Assembly: GCA_002718585.1 (NCBI GenBank)
Contig: PBFG01000019.1
Location: forward strand, 33,086-97,085
DNA from: Fidelibacterota bacterium
GTDB taxonomy: Bacteria > Fidelibacterota > Marinisomatia > SCGC-AAA003-L08 > D37C17
Reading direction: 5' to 3'
Length of the DNA: 64,000 bases
The translations under genes and the position numbers were made by a program. The notes below the pieces were generated by a model that saw nothing but the letters and a program-made list of their open reading frames with translations, did no database searches and was not told the origin of the DNA. Positions 19,249 through 32,886 of the stretch are shown here, in pieces; position 1 is the first letter of the stretch, and every line of letters starts with the position of its first letter.

Positions 19249-21720
19249 ATGAAAAAAATAATTTTAAATCTTATTTTAATAATGAATCTTTCCCTTTTTG
19301 GTTTAAATGATTACTCAAATATTTGGGGAGGACTTTCAGTTAGTTTATCAGATGACCTTGATGCCATGTATTTAAATCCAGCGGGATTTGGTGTAGATAG
19401 AGGCAAGCAATCAGGCTTTAATATTCAACAAGGAAACTTTAATAGCAACCATACTAACTATCATATTTTTTCATCAATATATAGATGGGAATCAGGCTTT
19501 GGATTTGAAAGTAGATATGATGAGATTAATAAATATCATTGGTCCTTAGGATATGGTACAAAAATTTTAGATAAATTATATTCTGGTTTTACAATTAATA
19601 AATCCGATGATTATTCATTCGGAATGCTATATAGATATTCAAATAATTTATCTACAGGATTTACACTATTTTCCAATAATAAAAACACTTTTAGAAAAAT
19701 TAGATATGGACTTGCTATTAGACCATACTCACCAAAATTCACTTTAGGATTTGATAAACTCATCAATTATAATGATGATTGGAAAAAAGACAATTCTACT
19801 GATTATTATTTTATAAACTTTGATATTGCAAAAGGCTTTAATATTGGAATAAATAAATATGAAGGAAAAAATTATTCTCTAAGTTTATCTATAAATCTCG
19901 GAAATAAAGGAGTGGTTATAAATAATTATTCACCAAATCAATCTACAAGTTCTATAACGGCTAATGGTATAGGTTTTTTCAATTACTCACAAAAACAAAA
20001 ATCAGATATTAATTTAATAAATCTTAAAATTAATAATTATGTAGAATTAGATCTTCAAGGCATTTTTATAGAAGAGAAACCTGTTAAAAAATCTGCTTTA
20101 AATTTTGAGATTAATCTTCTTCCATTTAGAAATAATAATTTAAAAGCTATTCAATTAAGGGATTTCATAGAAAAAATTGATGAAATCATTAAAAAAGATA
20201 ATATTAATGGTTTGATAATTAATTTGGGTAGAGTTCAAGCAGGATTTGGAAAGAGAAAGGAAATTTTTAAATCATTAATGAGATTAAAAGAATCTGGCAA
20301 AGAAATTATTGTATTTTGTGAAAAAAATGATATAAGTAATATGGATTACTATATTATTTCAATGGCTGACTACATTTATACTACACCGAATACATCAGTT
20401 GACTTAAAAGGTATAAATATGGAAATGACTTTTCTAAGAGGACTTTTAGATACAGTTTCCATTGTTCCAGAAGTAGTCAGAATAAGTCCTTACAAAACTG
20501 CTGGTGACCCCTTAATTAATGAAAAAATGTCAAAAGAAATGGAAGAGAACTATGGCCAACTCATGAATGACTTTTACTCTATTCTAACAAATGACTTGTC
20601 TAAATCCAAAAATTGGTCAAAAGAAAAAACAATAAAAATTATCGAAAACGGTCCGTATTATTCCAACAAAGAAGCTATAAATGCTGGTCTCATAAACAAG
20701 TCATTATATCCAGATCAGTTTGATGAGTTAATAAATTTAAAAAAAATAAATAAAATAAAATGGTCTGAAATTCAACCTAATAACTACTACATTGAAGAAT
20801 GGACTCCAGAAGATACGCCCAAAATTGCAATTATTTATGCTGTTGGAGGAATAGTATCAGGTGATAGTAATCCCAGTCCTTTAGGTTCTTCTATAATGGG
20901 TGATAAGACAATTAGAAGAGCAATTATTGAAGCCAGAGAAGATAAAAATATTAAAGCTATAATTTTACGTATAGATAGTGGCGGTGGTTCTGTACTTGCA
21001 TCTGATATGATTTGGAGAGAAATTAATAGAACAATTAATGATACATCAGGAAATAAGAAACCGATCATAGTTTCAATGTCAGATGTCGCAGCTTCTGGGG
21101 GGTATTATATTGGATGTGAAGCAGATAAAATTTTAGCTGAATCTTCCTCTATTACAGGTTCAATCGGAGTAATATGGGTTAGATTAAACTTTTCTGATTT
21201 ATTAAAAAGAATAGGTATAAAATTTGATGGCTTGAAAAGTAATAAAAATGCAGACTTTTTGAGTGGTTCTCATTTGATGACTGAACAAGAAAAAAATAAA
21301 ATTTTTAATGTAATAAATGAATCCTATAGTGATTTTAAAGAAAAAGTCATAAATGGTAGAGAAAACCTTAATGATATTGATCAATTAGATGAAATTGCAC
21401 TAGGTAGAATTTGGTCTGGGGATTCAGCTAAACAACATGGACTAATTGACGAAGTTGGAGGTATAGTAGAAGCATTAGAATCAGCAAAAGAACTTGCAAA
21501 TATTAGTTTAACTTCCGATATAAATATCGAAGAGTTTCCAAAATCAGAACCATTTAGTTTTCTAAAACTTTTTAATGATGAAAAATCTGTCTCCATTTTA
21601 AAATTTGATGATTTTTTACCAATTGATTTAGCAACAAAACTTAGTACTCTTAATTTATTACCTGTTCTAATAGATAATGAGCTACAATTACTTATGCCAT
21701 ATCAAATTATAATTAATTAA
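19249..21720 (+). CDS. sppA: Signal peptide peptidase SppA (two S49 domains) with an extra N-terminal domain of about 250 aa
   Basis: S49 motifs RIDSGGGSVLASD and SDVAASGGYYI, with a duplicated ClpP-like fold. The N-terminal part is rich in alternating aromatic/Gly and Asn, looking beta-rich, and contains YLNPAG. Confidence 0.8.
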   Translation: MKKIILNLILIMNLSLFGLNDYSNIWGGLSVSLSDDLDAMYLNPAGFGVDRGKQSGFNIQQGNFNSNHTNYHIFSSIYRWESGFGFESRYDEINKYHWSLGYGTKILDKLYSGFTINKSDDYSFGMLYRYSNNLSTGFTLFSNNKNTFRKIRYGLAIRPYSPKFTLGFDKLINYNDDWKKDNSTDYYFINFDIAKGFNIGINKYEGKNYSLSLSINLGNKGVVINNYSPNQSTSSITANGIGFFNYSQKQKSDINLINLKINNYVELDLQGIFIEEKPVKKSALNFEINLLPFRNNNLKAIQLRDFIEKIDEIIKKDNINGLIINLGRVQAGFGKRKEIFKSLMRLKESGKEIIVFCEKNDISNMDYYIISMADYIYTTPNTSVDLKGINMEMTFLRGLLDTVSIVPEVVRISPYKTAGDPLINEKMSKEMEENYGQLMNDFYSILTNDLSKSKNWSKEKTIKIIENGPYYSNKEAINAGLINKSLYPDQFDELINLKKINKIKWSEIQPNNYYIEEWTPEDTPKIAIIYAVGGIVSGDSNPSPLGSSIMGDKTIRRAIIEAREDKNIKAIILRIDSGGGSVLASDMIWREINRTINDTSGNKKPIIVSMSDVAASGGYYIGCEADKILAESSSITGSIGVIWVRLNFSDLLKRIGIKFDGLKSNKNADFLSGSHLMTEQEKNKIFNVINESYSDFKEKVINGRENLNDIDQLDEIALGRIWSGDSAKQHGLIDEVGGIVEALESAKELANISLTSDINIEEFPKSEPFSFLKLFNDEKSVSILKFDDFLPIDLATKLSTLNLLPVLIDNELQLLMPYQIIIN

Positions 21721-27682: not shown

Positions 27683-28342
27683 ATGAAAAGATATATTTTG
27701 ATATTATTATTTTCAAATCTACTTGCAAATGTATTTGAATATTCACTTTTGGATTACAATACGACATCCCCTACCCATCAACTAGATGTTTGGTACCCGG
27801 AATATTCTAATCACATTACAATGCATTATTTTGCAACTCAAGGATGAGCGGGCTGAACCGCAACATTTGGACAGTTGTCCAACTTTCAAGAAGAATTAAA
27901 AAACGATTATGGCTTCGAAAATGTTGTAATCATAGCAATTGGCCAAACTAATATTAGTAGTTTTAATAATAGTTTTTGCGCAAATTCTGATTTACCTCTA
28001 GTCATGGATGAATTTCCTGAGCTTCCAATTAGAGAACAATTTTCGCCTTATGGCGAATCACATGATTTTATAATTGTCGATTATGATGGTAATTATTTAG
28101 ATCACATTAACTTTTTAAGTTTAGGAAATATTGAAAAAAATTATATAATCGACGTACTAGAAGATAATTACAACCAAATAGTTTTGGGTGATGTTAATGG
28201 TGATACATTCGTTAATATTCAAGATGTCATTTTACTCGTTAATATGATACTTAGTAATTCATCTGATAATGTAGATGTAAATGGAGATGGCTCTACTAAT
28301 ATTTTGGATGTTATACAGATAGTTAATATTATTTTAAATTGA
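27683..28342 (+). CDS. Secreted thioredoxin-fold protein with two in-frame TGA codons (candidate UxxU redox motif) and a C-terminal dockerin pair
   Basis: The ATG at 27683 gives MKRYILILLFSNLLANV.. and ITMHYFATQG-TGA-AG-TGA-TATFGQL, in frame with tracked ORF 27875..28342. Dockerin repeats GDVNGDTFVNIQDVILLVNMIL and VDVNGDGSTNILDVIQIVNIIL. Confidence 0.55.
27867..27882 (+). promoter_or_regulatory. SECIS-like hairpin downstream of TGAs 27845 and 27854
   Basis: UUGGAC-AGUU-GUCCAA, a 6 bp stem. The loop G lies 20 nt after the second UGA and 29 nt after the first. Confidence 0.4.
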
Positions 28343-28417: not shown

Positions 28418-28432
28418 CGTGCAAAACGTGCA
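28418..28432 (+). promoter_or_regulatory. CGTGCA-N3-CGTGCA direct repeat upstream of the 28458 gene
   Basis: cgtgcaaaacgtgca is a GC-rich island in an AT-rich spacer, 26 nt before the ATG. The same motif occurs twice upstream of proteorhodopsin. Confidence 0.35.
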
Positions 28433-28457: not shown

Positions 28458-29111
28458 ATGAGAGTTTTTTTAATGTTATTAATAACATCTTTTAGTTTTA
28501 GTCAATACGCTTACAGTCTAACTGATAATAATAGTTCATCTGATTATTACCTAGAAAATGTCGGTCCAGAATATTTTGAAAATCAAATAACCATGCATTA
28601 TTTTGGAAGCTTTACATGAGGTCTGTGTAATTCGCGGTTCGCGCAATTAAACACCTTATATGAGTCCTTACTTGATAGTGGATATGACCAAGTTAAACTT
28701 ATTGGAATAGGCTACAGTTATCAATCTAATTCTTACAGTAATTGGTCAAATTCAAATGAATTCTCATCAGTTTGTTATGATGATAGCAACAATCCTACTT
28801 TTAATAGCTGGGGAGCGAGTCAAAGAGATTTTTATGTTTTAGACCACGAAAAGAATCTTGTCCTGGAACAAAATATTTCTGGAGGATTACCTGATAATCT
28901 TGAATCCCTAATCATTAACCTAATAAGCGATATACCAAACGAAATAATTAATGGTGATTTTAACCAAGATGGAGTATTAAATGTAGTAGATGTTGTTTCA
29001 ATTATTAATTTAGTTTTAACTAATCAATATAATGAGATTGCTGATGTTAATAGTGATAATTTATTAAATGTAGTAGATATTGTAATGCTAGTTAATCTAA
29101 TAATATCCTAA
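28458..29111 (+). CDS. Secreted thioredoxin-fold protein with in-frame TGA (candidate Sec, UxxC) and a C-terminal dockerin pair
   Basis: MRVFLMLLITSFSFSQ signal peptide and ITMHYFGSFT-TGA-GLCNSRFAQL. The frame stays open to the TAA at 29109. Dockerin repeats GDFNQDGVLNVVDVVSIINLVL and ADVNSDNLLNVVDIVMLVNLII. The ORF track reports only the part before the TGA. Confidence 0.6.
28629..28648 (+). promoter_or_regulatory. SECIS-like hairpin downstream of TGA 28617
   Basis: AAUU-CGCG-GUU-CGCG-(C bulge)-AAUU. The loop G lies 20 nt after the U of UGA, with the same CGGUUCG core as the hairpin at 22621. Confidence 0.5.
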
Positions 29112-29116
29112 TATTT

Positions 29117-29773
29117 TTATTGATTGTTTAGATCACTGAAATCAATTGTTATATACAATCTTCTGTATTTCTCATCATAATATGGAGATCGATGTACGAG
29201 TCCCTGACCTTTGTTTCCTGACCATAGTTCACCCTTTAACAAAGCAACATCACCTATAGCTAAATGCTTAATATCTGTTTTACTCGAAAATAAGCCATCT
29301 TGGTCTTTACTAAATTTTTGATTAAATTTTAGTTTTCTCCTATCAATTAAATCATTTGGCAGCCATTCTGTACCTGGTCCATAATATGTTGTCAGCAATC
29401 TACATTTTAAATAATCAACATGAAATCTAGGACATGTTGCATTTGTTGAAATACCCATTCTTAACCAAACTTTCTTCAGTTCAAACATATTACAAAATAA
29501 TTCGGATAAATTAGATATATCATTAAATAAAAATATTTTATTTTGAGATTGACCTAATCTATTAACTAGAGCTTCATTTATTTCGTTATACTTGAGAACT
29601 TTTGAAAAGTCAAATTCTAAATTATCATTAATTATTTCTTCTGCACCAAAAGATATTGATTCATCCAATTTCCTTTTCCATAATGAAATATTATTTTTGT
29701 TATCAAAAATTTCTGATAGAACTATGGATTTTCTGTTAAAAATATTTTTTCTTAAAATTGTTTTATTAATCAC
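29117..29773 (-). CDS. Conserved hypothetical protein, DUF1826-like (frequent partner of COG0523 GTPases)
   Basis: Overlaps the upstream COG0523 gene by 4 nt. The family assignment is from memory of the pairing and of CPRFHVD..HRSP-type motifs, and is tentative. Confidence 0.5.
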
Positions 29774-30969
29774 GAAATTTCATTCCATTCAGGAAATGGA
29801 TCATTAAATGTTTCCCAATGTTTTCTACCCATTAATAAGTCATCCGTAGATAATAAACAATCATCAAGGAGTTTAATAATTTTATTTTTTTCTAAACCTT
29901 GACCGATAAAAACTAATTCTTGACGCATGTCACCAAATGGTTCTACCCATTTTTCATCTATAAAATCTAATGTTTCTTGGTCTTCAGGCCAACGTTCTTT
30001 TGGTATCGCTTTCCAAAACATTCCAGCAAAACCATGGTGAGCTATTCCCCCCGCTTGATTCCAACTTCCCGCAAACATGGGCCGTGATGCGAGCCAAAAA
30101 AAACCTTTTGATCTAATTAATTTTCCAGCAATATCTTTACTGTGTAAAAAATTATGAAATTTTTCAGGATAAAAGGGTCTTCGAGCTTCGTAAACAAAAC
30201 TACTTATGCCATACTCTTCTGTTTCTGGTATATGTTCTCCATTCATTTCCTGCATCCATCCGGGTGCTTTTTGAGCTTTTTCAAAATCAAATAATCCAGT
30301 GTTTAAAATCTTATCAATTTTAATTCCTCCGTTTGAAATTGGAATGATTTCAGCATTTGTATTTAAAGTTTTTAAAATAGAAACTAATTTATTTATTTTT
30401 TTCTGATTCACTAAATCAATTTTACTAATTAGAATTATATCAGCAAATTCAACCTGATCGACTAATAGGTCCGCTACACTTCTATGATCATCTTCTCCCA
30501 GTGACTCACCAACTTCTTGAAGATATTTTGCTTCATCATAATCCTTCAAAAAATTTACTGCATCTACAACAGTTACCATTGTATCTAATTTAGATACATC
30601 TGAAAGCGATGTACCATTTTCATCTTCAAATATAAATGTTTCTGCAACTGGTAAAGGTTCAGATATACCCGTTGATTCAATTAATAAATAATCAAATTTA
30701 TTAGATTTAGCTAATTTGGAAACTTCGACTAATAAATCCTCTCTCAAGGTACAACATATACAACCATTACTCATTTCTACTAATTTTTCTTCTTTGTAAT
30801 CAAGTGAAACATCTTTTTGAATCATACTTTGATCTATATTAATTTCACTCATATCATTCACTATAACAGCAACTTTCTTTCCTTCTCGATTATTTAATAC
30901 ATTGGTTAATACTGTTGTTTTTCCTGCTCCTAAAAATCCTGATAGAACAGTTACAGGTAATCTCTCCAT
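29770..30969 (-). CDS. COG0523-family G3E GTPase (CobW/ZigA/YjiA-like zinc metallochaperone)
   Basis: P-loop GFLGAGKTT, metal-binding [10 protein letters not shown] (CxCC), ESTGISEP and a CobW_C-like tail. Confidence 0.88.
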
Positions 30970-31018: not shown

Positions 31019-31033
31019 TGCAACTAAGTTGCA
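31019..31033. promoter_or_regulatory. Perfect 7-1-7 palindrome TGCAACT-A-AGTTGCA, candidate operator for the COG0523 operon
   Basis: Read directly from the sequence. It lies 50 nt upstream of the COG0523 start codon, in the divergent intergenic region. Confidence 0.4.
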
Positions 31034-31072
31034 ATTATTATTTATCCAAATAAATAAAAAAATAATTAAAAC

Positions 31073-31146
31073 TGCACGCTATGCACGTTTTTTTTTATTG
31101 CATATTTAATTTTAATCTTTTTAAATTACGCCGTGCTTTTCGTGCA
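31073..31146 (+). promoter_or_regulatory. Two inverted copies of the CGTGCA-N3-CGTGCA motif upstream of proteorhodopsin
   Basis: tgcacgctatgcacg (31073-31087) and cgtgcttttcgtgca (31132-31146), separated by 44 AT-rich nt. The second copy ends 37 nt before the ATG. Confidence 0.35.
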
Positions 31147-31182
31147 CATAGTAATTACTAAATAATTTAGGAGGTAAACTTA

Positions 31183-31872
31183 ATGGAATATTTAACATGG
31201 CTGGTTCCCGGCCACGAAAATTTCTTAGTAAGTTTCTCATTTTGGTTTGCAACAGCAATGATGCTTGCCGCAACAGCCTTTTTTTACGTTGAGAGAAGGG
31301 ACGTTAATGCTAAGTGGAAAACTTCACTTACAGTAGCAATGCTTGTTACAGGAATCGCATTTTGGCATTATTTATATATGACAGATTACTTTTTCGCAAC
31401 AGGTAACTCACCAATCGTCTTAAGATATGTTGATTGGTTAATAACAGTACCATTACAAATTGTAGAATTTTACTTGATACTTGCAGCAGTAACTACAGTA
31501 TCAAAATCATTATTCTGGCAATTATTAGTAGCATCACTTGTGATGTTAGTTGGTGGATTCTTAGGAGAAGCAGGATTAATGGCTAGAATGCCTGCCTTTG
31601 TAATAGGAATGCTTGGTTGGTTTGGAGTCTTATACCTTATATTCATGGGTGAGGCAGCAAAAGCTAACGACGCCAGTGGTAATGAAGCTGGACAAAAAGC
31701 ATTTAGTGCTTTAAAATGGATTGTACTAGTTGGTTGGGCAATGTATCCGATCGGCTACTATTTAGATGGTACAGGACATACAACAGATATCGTTTATAAC
31801 TTTGCTGACTTAGTTAATAAAGCAGCTTTTGGCCTTGTAATTTGGGCTGCAGCTAAATCAGATAAATCATAA
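31183..31872 (+). CDS. Proteorhodopsin, proton-pumping (DTE motif), blue-tuned (Gln at position 105)
   Basis: RYVDWLITVPLQIVEFYLIL gives D97, T101, Q105 and E108 by alignment to green PR. Schiff-base Lys is in FADLVNKAAFGLVIW and His is in AFWHYLYM. Strong RBS aggagg at 31169. Confidence 0.93.
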   Translation: MEYLTWLVPGHENFLVSFSFWFATAMMLAATAFFYVERRDVNAKWKTSLTVAMLVTGIAFWHYLYMTDYFFATGNSPIVLRYVDWLITVPLQIVEFYLILAAVTTVSKSLFWQLLVASLVMLVGGFLGEAGLMARMPAFVIGMLGWFGVLYLIFMGEAAKANDASGNEAGQKAFSALKWIVLVGWAMYPIGYYLDGTGHTTDIVYNFADLVNKAAFGLVIWAAAKSDKS

Positions 31873-31923: not shown

Positions 31924-32886
31924 ATGAATTATAAGATTTTAAACCAAAAAATTTCTTTTATATTTCTTCGAGTAACTTTTCTATTATTTGCCATTGCAGC
32001 TGTAGCACCTAATTTTAACAATTTAATACTTAACGACTACTTTTGTTCCTTTCTCATACTGACAATTGGATTATCTCATGGAGCTTTAGATAACCAAAAA
32101 GGTAAAATTGTCTTAGATTTTTTTAAATCCAATAAAATGTCGCTGTTTTATATTGCTTATGTGGCTTTTTCAATTATTGCAATCAGTTGCTGGTATAACT
32201 TTCCAACGATAAGCTTACTGACATTATTAATTATTGGACCCTATCACTTTGGTAAGGATGATTGTGATCTGTTTAAGATTAATAAATTTAGTTTTAGAAA
32301 TATAATTTTTTTTGTTAAGGGCACTGTAGTTATAAGTGCCCCACTTCTGTTTAATTTTAATGAAACAATTGATATATTTAAAATACTTTCATCAGATTCA
32401 AATTTTTTAATATCATCATTATTATACTTAAATGAAAATAATTTAATTTTATTTTTTGTATTATTTGGTTTTATCAGTTCAATATATCTTCCAAGAGATT
32501 TTTCAATTAAATTTTTATTGTACGTTGAATTTACATCTATTATTCTTTTAAACTATTTATTTAAGCCCTATGCAGCATTTACAATATATTTTTGTTTTCT
32601 TCATTCAATGAGGCATATAATTGTCTTGAATAAAAGCTTAAACTTATTAAAACCAAAAAATAAAAAACCAAAAACTTCAGTTTTTAATATATTCAATAAT
32701 TTTTATAAGCATGCATTAAAGTTAACTTTAATTTCATCCTTTATCTTTCTATCATGCATGTATGTGAGTTCAAATCTACTTTACGTTGATGATACTCTAT
32801 TAAAGATAATTTTTCCAGGCTTAGCTGCATTAACTCTACCTCATATAATTTTAGATTTCTTGTATGAAAAAATAAAAGCTTATTAG
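31924..32886 (+). CDS. blh: Brp/Blh-family beta-carotene 15,15'-dioxygenase (retinal synthesis)
   Basis: Polytopic membrane protein with four conserved His contexts (LSHGALD, GPYHFGKDD, FLHSMRH, LPHIILD), directly downstream of the rhodopsin. I prefer the ATG at 31924 because the tracked TTG at 31900 lies inside the terminator stem. Confidence 0.8.
   Translation: MNYKILNQKISFIFLRVTFLLFAIAAVAPNFNNLILNDYFCSFLILTIGLSHGALDNQKGKIVLDFFKSNKMSLFYIAYVAFSIIAISCWYNFPTISLLTLLIIGPYHFGKDDCDLFKINKFSFRNIIFFVKGTVVISAPLLFNFNETIDIFKILSSDSNFLISSLLYLNENNLILFFVLFGFISSIYLPRDFSIKFLLYVEFTSIILLNYLFKPYAAFTIYFCFLHSMRHIIVLNKSLNLLKPKNKKPKTSVFNIFNNFYKHALKLTLISSFIFLSCMYVSSNLLYVDDTLLKIIFPGLAALTLPHIILDFLYEKIKAY

Follow-up and report, generated by a model that had tools for sequence, protein, structure and literature searches.

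The stretch of DNA analysed here (the window) is 64,000 nucleotides long and comes from a Fidelibacterota bacterium (NCBI GenBank assembly GCA_002718585.1, contig PBFG01000019.1); it corresponds to C21:33086-97085 of the assembly, designated G000, and all other G-numbers denote the genomes of relatives. The window carries a proteorhodopsin gene, and the intergenic spacer in front of this gene contains two inverted copies of the element CGTGCA-N3-CGTGCA, which is the subject of this report. To our knowledge, the regulation of proteorhodopsin in abundant uncultured ocean heterotrophs is largely unknown, and we know of nothing for the SAR406 lineage. The comparisons set out below suggest that each element is probably an operator composed of two 9-bp head-to-tail repeats, bound by a Marinimicrobia-specific repressor of the LitR/CarH family that we refer to as class B.

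The proteorhodopsin promoter region

The proteorhodopsin gene is followed after 27–51 nt by blh, which is probably co-transcribed with it, and is preceded by a divergent operon encoding a COG0523 GTPase and a DUF1826 protein, which starts 103 nt beyond the distal copy of the element (Table 1). Re-reading of the sequence confirmed both copies described in the original prediction, tgcacg-cta-tgcacg and cgtgct-ttt-cgtgca, at the positions first reported. The 44-nt spacer between them (31088-31131) is indeed almost entirely A/T, and the downstream copy lies close to the proteorhodopsin start as claimed, with 36 nt between position 31146 and the ATG at 31183. A third exact copy in the window had been overlooked. 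Allowing at most one mismatch, CGTGCWNNNCGTGCA occurs three times in the window compared with 0.01 expected, and none of 100 shuffled sequences reached three; the window contains six CGTGCA hexamers, and all but one of them fall within the three sites.

A putative promoter is located between the inverted copies. Its -35 hexamer, TTGCAT, was missing from the output of a strict-consensus promoter scan, and the proximal operator begins 4 nt past the predicted -10 box and should therefore overlie the predicted transcription start of proteorhodopsin. On the minus strand, the distal copy is preceded by ATGCAATAAAAAAAAA, as at the promoters of the regulators described below, and this copy is kept in the same-genus genome G001. 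When 60 non-redundant sites from this genome and its relatives were aligned, the consensus tttaaAttAaAt was found immediately before the operator, and TTGCAT or TTGACA recurred 32–36 nt upstream of it. The alignment resembles a sigma-70-type promoter with a -35/-10 spacing of 17–18 nt and a -10 box ending 3–5 nt before the operator, which would place the transcription start inside the first hexamer of the proximal copy.

Table 1. Features of the window, operons elsewhere in assembly G000 that lie behind copies of the element, and elements upstream of proteorhodopsin genes in relatives
Feature	Position	Strand	Remarks
Distal operator CGTGCATAGCGTGCA	31073..31087	-	Just upstream of proteorhodopsin -35; faces divergent COG0523-DUF1826 operon
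Predicted -35 hexamer TTGCAT	31098..31103	+	Proteorhodopsin promoter; predicted from sequence
Predicted -10 hexamer TAAATT	31122..31127	+	Predicted from sequence; 18 nt after -35
Promoter-proximal operator CGTGCTTTTCGTGCA	31132..31146	+	Two direct repeats of 9-bp period, directed at proteorhodopsin gene
Proteorhodopsin gene, 229 aa	31183..31872	+	Pfam Bac_rhodopsin, E = 3.7e-47
blh, beta-carotene 15,15'-dioxygenase (retinal synthesis)	31924..32886	+	Pfam BCD, E = 1.1e-44
COG0523 (CobW-type GTPase)	29770-30969	-	Pfam cobW, CobW_C
DUF1826	29117-29773	-	Pfam DUF1826; operon with COG0523, 29117..30969
Third exact operator CGTGCAAAACGTGCA	28418..28432	+	25 nt upstream of ATG at 28458
Thioredoxin-like/dockerin protein	28458..29112	+	In-frame TGA 28617-28619 (U-x-x-C)
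sufA-B-C-D-(E)-S operon			Behind a site
hemA-C-D-E-F-H-Y-B operon			Behind a site
DHH phosphoesterase, dcd, ispH, pdxS, pdxT, dxs	G000 C7:29900-38651		Operon behind the C7 operator
FNR-like reductase, pirin, MFS transporter, photolyase-related (DPRP) gene			Operon behind a site
NmrA-like gene, two small proteins, glutathione peroxidase			Operon behind a site
Two tandem sites			Between TonB-dependent receptor and crtI-crtB-idi-crtZ-crtY
G001 proteorhodopsin upstream			Inverted pair identical in layout to window
G033 proteorhodopsin upstream			Two direct copies, 53 nt apart
G029, G037 proteorhodopsin upstream			CGCGCA-cat-CGCGCA plus half-site further upstream
G019 proteorhodopsin upstream			CGTGCA-aaa-CGCGCA
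G007 proteorhodopsin upstream			CGTGTA-aaa-CGTGCA
G013 proteorhodopsin upstream			CGCGCA-taa-CGCGCA
G035 proteorhodopsin upstream	~90 nt upstream		CGCTCA-ttt-CGCTCT

The element marks a regulon and is conserved in relatives

Assembly G000 comprises 1.46 Mb in 35 contigs with 27.8% G+C and is 93% complete. It contains 69 CGTGCA hexamers, and same-strand pairs at exactly 9 nt occur six times compared with 0.0016 expected. When one mismatch was allowed, ten sites were found genome-wide, all ten of them intergenic in a genome of which approximately 93% consists of open reading frames (ORFs) of at least 120 aa, and the period was exactly 9 in every case. A weight-matrix scan returned ten sites at or above 22.9 bits and a next match, in coding sequence, at 15.3 bits; the matrix was trained on the same ten sites, so this result supports the set and is no independent proof. 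Counts of the reversed pattern ACGTGC-N3-ACGTGC are unusable as a null because it overlaps the true sites. The original prediction had proposed a genome-wide search, with random distribution as the outcome that would speak against it, and the sites are clearly not distributed in that way: CGTGCA-N3-CGTGCA is a real, non-random cis-element. None of the intergenic regions of this genome contains a CGCTCA-type operator of the kind found in some relatives, and only the CGTGCA type is in use.

The ten sites lie at eight loci, six of which have a single site. They end 9–57 nt before start codons, and eight of the ten are directed at the downstream gene. Operons behind the sites were read from ORFs, and their key members were verified with Pfam (Table 1). 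The gap between the suf site and its ATG is only 15 nt long and includes a GGAG ribosome-binding site. The sites next to the crt genes and the TonB-dependent receptor are CGTTCA/CGTGCA hybrids. Two genes of the methylerythritol phosphate (MEP) pathway, dxs and ispH, share the operator-bearing C7 operon with pdxS/pdxT, dcd and the DHH phosphoesterase gene, and isoprenoid precursor supply appears to be co-regulated with the carotenoid, retinal and rhodopsin genes.

Some relatives have several exact copies of CGTGCA-N3-CGTGCA in each genome, and the others have none. Phylogenetic footprinting of proteorhodopsin upstream regions, also proposed in the original prediction, recovered the element in nine of 11 related genomes: CGYGCA-N3-CGYGCA or CGCTCA-N3-CGCTCT was found in three families of the order, 26–36 nt before the ATG in eight relatives and farther upstream in G035. 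Other members of the regulon are conserved as well. G001 retains sites at hemA, sufA, the FNR-like gene and the NmrA-like gene, and the hemA site is also present in G019 and G024.

Many promoters have two sites, or a site and a half-site, flanking the -35/-10 region. The two are inverted in this genus and direct in G033, G029 and G037, and their centre-to-centre distance ranges from 55 to 68 nt; this variation in orientation and spacing argues against a fixed looping geometry. DNA looping by a tetramer, as first suggested, is possible, and the pair is also compatible with two back-to-back promoters that each have their own operator, or with two dimers of an oligomeric CarH-like protein that bind cooperatively.

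A class-B regulator gene accompanies the element

In relatives, a gene for a regulator of 281–294 aa (class B; 286 aa in G001, where it is encoded on PANV01000027) sits immediately behind the sites, and sites were found at its own promoter in nine genomes (G001, G004, G007, G010, G011, G013, G016, G017 and G033). The usual layout there is an inverted pair approximately 40–50 nt apart, as at the proteorhodopsin promoter of the window. A class-B gene is present in every relative that has two or more exact sites in intergenic DNA, the sole exception to this rule being the present assembly, and relatives that lack the gene lack the motif. A census with two class-B signature peptides and one genome per species yielded 53 loci, all from metagenome-assembled or single-amplified genomes of Candidatus Neomarinimicrobiota/Marinimicrobia (SAR406) or from unclassified marine metagenome-assembled genomes. 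The original prediction could match the motif to no known regulator; autoregulatory position, co-occurrence, covariation and geometry now name class-B LitR/CarH as the candidate family.

The recognition helix of the regulator covaries with its operator. The helix reads S-T-x-K-R-W in 42 regulators; xGCTCA-N3-CGCTC lies upstream of 37 of them and CGTGCA upstream of none. CGYGCA-N3-CGYGCA precedes 13 of the 15 regulators with S-T-x-R-R-W, and the remaining two have hybrids. Over these 57 regulators, ..RRW is paired with CGTGCA and ..KRW with CGCTCA. BldC of Streptomyces provides a structural reference for this relationship. BldC protomers bind 9-bp direct repeats head-to-tail, with the consensus AATTxxxxC (PMC5859096), and the repeat unit AAAACGTGC has the same period and layout. 

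BldC residues T27, R30, W31, G44, H46 and R47, which take part in binding or head-tail contact, are conserved in class B; K-T-V-T-R-W of BldC aligns with S-T-V-R-R-W, and the wing motif GGHR is conserved. The variable R/K residue is equivalent to Thr29 of BldC and adjoins Arg30, which makes a specific guanine contact at a YpG step in the BldC-DNA structure (PMC5859096). Arg30 would accordingly contact the CA/TG step that is invariant in both operator types, with the variable TG/CT bases beside this step.

A class-B protein bound 3–5 nt past the -10 box would cover the transcription start, and class B should for this reason act as a repressor. At the proteorhodopsin promoter, the proximal copy would be the main operator, and the inverted distal copy would serve the divergent COG0523 promoter, aid binding of a second dimer, or both. 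One class-B protein would control eight loci: proteorhodopsin-blh, crtIBZY with idi, dxs/ispH, hemACDEFHYB, sufABCDS, the photolyase-related operon, the peroxidase operon and a probable selenoprotein gene.

Several genomes have class-A CarH paralogues alongside class B, with CGCTCA-N3-CGCTCA or CGCGCA at the class-A promoters, and a third type of paralogue, which is more divergent (helix ..SLKRW, no His), lies behind CGTTCA-taa-CGTTCA in G033; the loci concerned are L064 (G019), L067 (G029), L068 (G017), L071 (G007) and L069 (G033). Divergent from the regulator in relatives (L012, L015, L024, L038) lies a gene for a membrane protein of 140–156 aa without a Pfam match; it starts 156–171 nt after its operator, which leaves a long leader.

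Class B has a CarH fold and lacks the cobalamin signature residues

In Pfam searches, class B matched HTH_17 (28 bits) and MerR_1 (23 bits), and its B12-binding match (23 bits) was below the cutoff of 32. A profile of eight members matched CtMerR (8jbs), an experimentally validated CarH-type adenosylcobalamin photoreceptor (PMC11796333), from end to end (E = 2.6e-22). The helix-turn-helix (HTH) domain matched BldC (PDB: 6ama/6amk; E ~1e-8) and the DNA-binding region of 8jbs. Modelling with AlphaFold, for which 37 sequences were aligned, gave a structure with a per-residue confidence (pLDDT) of 85 and a predicted TM score (pTM) of 0.82, and a Foldseek search with this model returned Thermus thermophilus CarH (5c8e, 5c8d) and 8jbs as top hits (TM 0.79, root-mean-square deviation 2.8 A). 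As modelled, class B belongs to the LitR/CarH family in the broad sense, with a MerR/BldC-type winged HTH, a four-helix bundle and a B12-binding-like Rossmann domain.

Two paralogue classes occur in the order. Class A retains the GxxW, EH, GxxH and GxxxP light-sensing signature, of which GxxW/Wx9EH is characteristic of CarH-type photoreceptors (PMC11796333). No class-B sequence keeps the Trp of GxxW/Wx9EH, which has become K, L, E or some other residue, and the EH pair is kept only in f1, the family of this genome, being EY, AY, AF or ES elsewhere. The lower axial His of (E/D)xHxxG is Pro in all 49 class-B sequences compared, within the loop E(N/D)(D/N)(I/L/V)PD(L/I), and the GxxxP position reads GS(H/N)(A/T)(E/S), without Pro. 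Class B also has an eight-residue insertion, (Y/F)(L/M)C(D/N)xQCC, that is, CxxxCC. C163, C218, C222 and C223 (G001 numbering) are invariant or nearly so in 37 sequences. The model places the residues that are invariant within class B and specific to it along the cofactor edge of the Rossmann sheet, with C163 in beta1, N165, E167, P171 and D172 in the next loop, and C218, Q221, C222 and C223 in the loop after beta3.

Canonical adenosylcobalamin sensing is not expected of class B because the cobalamin-ligating residues are missing. Family members that are independent of B12 use other inputs, namely a short-LOV (light-oxygen-voltage) partner in class II LitR, and singlet oxygen together with CarS in CarA. 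Class B may sense through the cysteine cluster or through a partner protein; no LOV gene was found among the recurrent neighbours at 52 loci, in a domain scan that covered part of the neighbours.

Comparison with known systems

Class B has the same three-part architecture and fold as the class I CarH/LitR proteins (T. thermophilus CarH, 5C8D/5C8E; Chloracidobacterium CtMerR, 8JBS). As judged from sequence, it also shares with them tandem direct repeats at sigma-70 promoters, an operator at the regulator's own gene and a carotenoid/photolyase-type regulon. It differs in lacking GxxW/Wx9EH, the lower-ligand His and GxxxP, and in having the CxxxCC insertion. The reference CarH operator consists of three to four repeats of 11 bp in tandem, nnnnTnnACAn, and overlaps the -35 or -10 (PMC9304148), whereas class B has two repeats of 9-bp period, (A/T)3-CGTGCA; the class I operator lies over the -35 (PMC9304148), and that of class B lies over the predicted transcription start, downstream of the -10. 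Class-B targets reach beyond those of class I to proteorhodopsin, heme, suf and the MEP pathway.

CarA of Myxococcus xanthus is, like class B, a B12-independent CarH relative without Wx9EH; it is a CarH duplicate with related operators and coexists with a canonical CarH paralogue, just as G007, G017 and G029 each have both class A and class B. In contrast to CarA, class B is of independent origin, is restricted to Marinimicrobia and has the unique Cys insertion; counterparts of CarS, CarF and CarQ were not seen, although no search aimed at them was made. BldC (6AMA/6AMK) resembles class B in its HTH and in 9-bp direct repeats with an A/T-rich part and a C-G base pair per unit, but it has 68 residues, no sensor domain, a role in developmental control and sites that may hold many repeats. 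Class II LitR (Pseudomonas PplR/PmlR) is a B12-independent LitR-family repressor of photolyase, cryptochrome-like, pterin and lipid genes for which a partner senses light (PMC9758184). It keeps the helical bundle only, whereas class B keeps the whole Rossmann domain in the model, and its operator, TGTACA-N12-TGTACA, is unlike that of class B.

Nature of the signal and points against the proposed system

At 52 Marinimicrobia class-B loci, a DNA photolyase gene flanks the regulator in 31 and a DPRP photolyase-related gene in 25, and SDR, VOC, SRPBCC, NmrA-like and glutathione-peroxidase genes are further neighbours; several of these families are operator-bearing in this genome. In G041, a member of the K-type group (..KRW/CGCTCA), a small regulon consists of photoprotection-type genes, without suf or hem. 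LitR/CarH light regulons elsewhere are comparable in content (PMC9758184, PMC9304148), and in this Marinimicrobia family the regulon is expanded to proteorhodopsin, crt, MEP, hem and suf. By analogy, light or photo-oxidative stress is on balance the favoured signal.

A number of observations weigh against the proposed system. The sites at crtI run opposite to the orientation of the gene, and G011 and G024 have no site upstream of proteorhodopsin although G011 has the regulator. The compared sequences are related, and the covariation rests on few independent evolutionary events. Class B departs from the cobalamin photoreceptors at every signature motif compared, and light is argued from family, neighbourhood and regulon content; the suf, hem, COG0523, TonB-receptor and cupredoxin targets fit an iron, iron–sulfur (Fe-S) or metal signal equally well. 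Finally, tblastn with two orthologues found no regulator gene in this 93%-complete assembly.

The 8.8-kb regulator region of G001 likewise had no blastn match in this assembly. Contig C12 of G000 is collinear over its full length with contig C27 of G001 at 93% identity and ends, at position 19269, exactly at the boundary of an 11-kb island (G001:C27:1-11033; L073, L024, L025, L126, L127). The island carries a UV-endonuclease-like gene, an SDR gene, a small membrane protein gene, the class-B regulator, a Lon-N-like gene, a glyoxalase-like (VOC) gene and a photolyase gene. Because C12 ends at the island boundary, we treat the absence as an assembly break and not as a loss, and because ten operators are perfectly kept, we infer that the organism has the class-B protein. 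Numerous offset blastn matches among L128 10067-10439, G000 C12:1-107 and G000 C24:34461-34597 point to a tandem repeat of ~18 nt at contig termini, which is probably the cause of the assembly breaks. Class II-type photolyase, SRPBCC and VOC genes adjoin the regulator in other Marinimicrobia, and these too are missing from this genome.

Alternative explanations

The original prediction offered a leader RNA structure beside an operator, and of these two readings the operator has gained support as a regulon-wide, conserved, promoter-proximal DNA site. In the RNA alternative, the inverted copies would pair (6 + 5 bp around a 44-nt loop) and control translation or termination of rhodopsin, or the element would act within the 5' untranslated region as a protein-binding RNA motif. 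Folding of 31065-31185 to minimum free energy does bring both copies into pairing, and the shared orientation of eight of ten sites at 9–57 nt from start codons would suit a leader. The pairing is nevertheless no better than in shuffled sequence (z = -0.57; 47 of 200 shuffled versions folded as well; a second fold gave z = -0.16), and there was no Rfam match at E <= 1. Six of eight loci have one copy only, the G033 proteorhodopsin copies are direct rather than inverted, the crtI sites are reverse-oriented, and the predicted -35/-10 between the copies would put the distal copy outside the rhodopsin transcript; we regard an RNA role as highly improbable. A promoter element for an alternative sigma factor would likewise be directional and would keep a short, fairly constant distance from start codons, as these sites do, yet sigma-70-like -35/-10 pairs with 17–18 nt spacing lie immediately upstream of the sites, the 15 nt at suf including GGAG leave almost no room for a start, and the element is found in either orientation and also, as an auxiliary copy, ahead of the -35. 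We know of no sigma factor spacing that a 9-nt period would fit, and the chance that the repeat is such an element seems close to nil. Sigma-54 was rejected by reasoning, the GG/GC spacing of its -24/-12 elements being mismatched with the 9-nt period and sigma-70-like boxes being present upstream.

Operators of this kind could also belong to another factor encoded here, the candidate being an Rrf2 (IscR-like) regulator. Its gene (C25:5440-5835; motif C-x5-C-x5-C) ends 42 nt upstream of the suf-operon site and lies directly upstream of the sufA site in both this genome and G001. Rrf2 homologues are, however, present in 34 of 41 relatives (21 of 22 high-quality genomes), many of them free of the motif, and in G015 the Rrf2 gene runs directly into sufB with no site, in a comparison of Rrf2-suf spacers that covered two loci. 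The region upstream of the Rrf2 gene itself has no site. Rrf2 proteins bind palindromes as symmetric dimers, whereas the operator here is a direct repeat. Rrf2 was rejected as the binder because its presence does not track the motif, and we consider this assignment very unlikely. A more serious alternative, though still an unlikely one, accepts the operator and class B as proposed and changes the signal to Fe-S, iron, metal or redox status, with the four cysteines holding an Fe-S cluster or a thiophilic metal. Class B would then report in the manner of SufR, IscR or SoxR, and an iron-sparing response would turn on proteorhodopsin, cupredoxins and TonB receptors. The regulon includes full suf and hem operons, ispH, the FNR-like reductase, COG0523 and a TonB-dependent receptor, with cupredoxin genes in relatives; all cobalamin signature residues are lost, and the near-invariant C163, C218, C222 and C223 lie in or after beta1 and beta3 at the cofactor edge. 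Set against this are the photolyase genes that adjoin the regulator in most of the 52 loci, the G041 regulon of photoprotection type without suf/hem, and the presence of crt, blh, rhodopsin, the DPRP gene and peroxidase, which are classic LitR/CarH light-regulon content (PMC9758184, PMC9304148).

Further features of the window

The protein encoded at 28458..29112, behind the third operator, matches Dockerin_1 and, below the cutoff, Thioredoxin_8, and is a probable selenoprotein and regulon member. It is one of two tandem paralogues (27683-28342 and 28458-29112) that encode secreted thioredoxin-like proteins with dockerin-type C termini and in-frame TGA at the redox motif. The motif is G-U-A-G-U (two TGAs, UxxU) in the first and T-U-G-L-C in the second; a hairpin follows each TGA in both, and a tRNA-Sec gene is present at G000 C1:27495-27587. 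Both are probable selenoproteins, the second of which bears the operator.

The interval from the distal operator to the COG0523 start contains a perfect palindrome, TGCAAC-TAA-GTTGCA (31019-31033). No other site of this kind occurs in the genome; the palindrome has the counterpart TGCAAC-TAT-GTTGCA in G001 and was also flagged by a terminator scan. It may be the operator of a second regulator, perhaps of Zur type, and COG0523 may be under dual control.

Discussion

No paper linking Marinimicrobia to CarH turned up in the library searched, and a search on diel SAR406 rhodopsin expression returned nothing usable. Relative to LitR/CarH as described, what is new is the sensor-domain subclass, the BldC-like 9-bp operator grammar and a regulon that includes proteorhodopsin, in an uncultured, globally abundant lineage. 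The analysis supplies a 15-bp operator, a named candidate repressor and a full predicted regulon that joins rhodopsin to retinal, carotenoid/isoprenoid, heme, Fe-S and photoprotection genes. The pairing of R or K in the recognition helix with TG or CT in the operator constitutes a natural specificity switch.

Class B is a CarH-fold subfamily, found in at least 53 species-level genomes, that is predicted to be unable to use the known cobalamin photochemistry. A tentative extension of the proposal is that it represents a new sensor class on the CarH scaffold, its pocket rebuilt around the four cysteines for an Fe-S cluster, a metal or a redox-active disulfide. Singlet oxygen, reactive oxygen species or Fe-S status would then jointly induce three gene groups, for light harvesting (proteorhodopsin, retinal, carotenoids, MEP pathway), for heme and Fe-S synthesis and for photorepair, through the 9-bp BldC-type operators. 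If true, this would be B12-independent "light" regulation in a B12-poor ocean that arose independently of Myxococcus CarA and Pseudomonas class II LitR. The class-B subfamily bears on the search for new photoreceptors or redox sensors and on the design of optogenetic tools.

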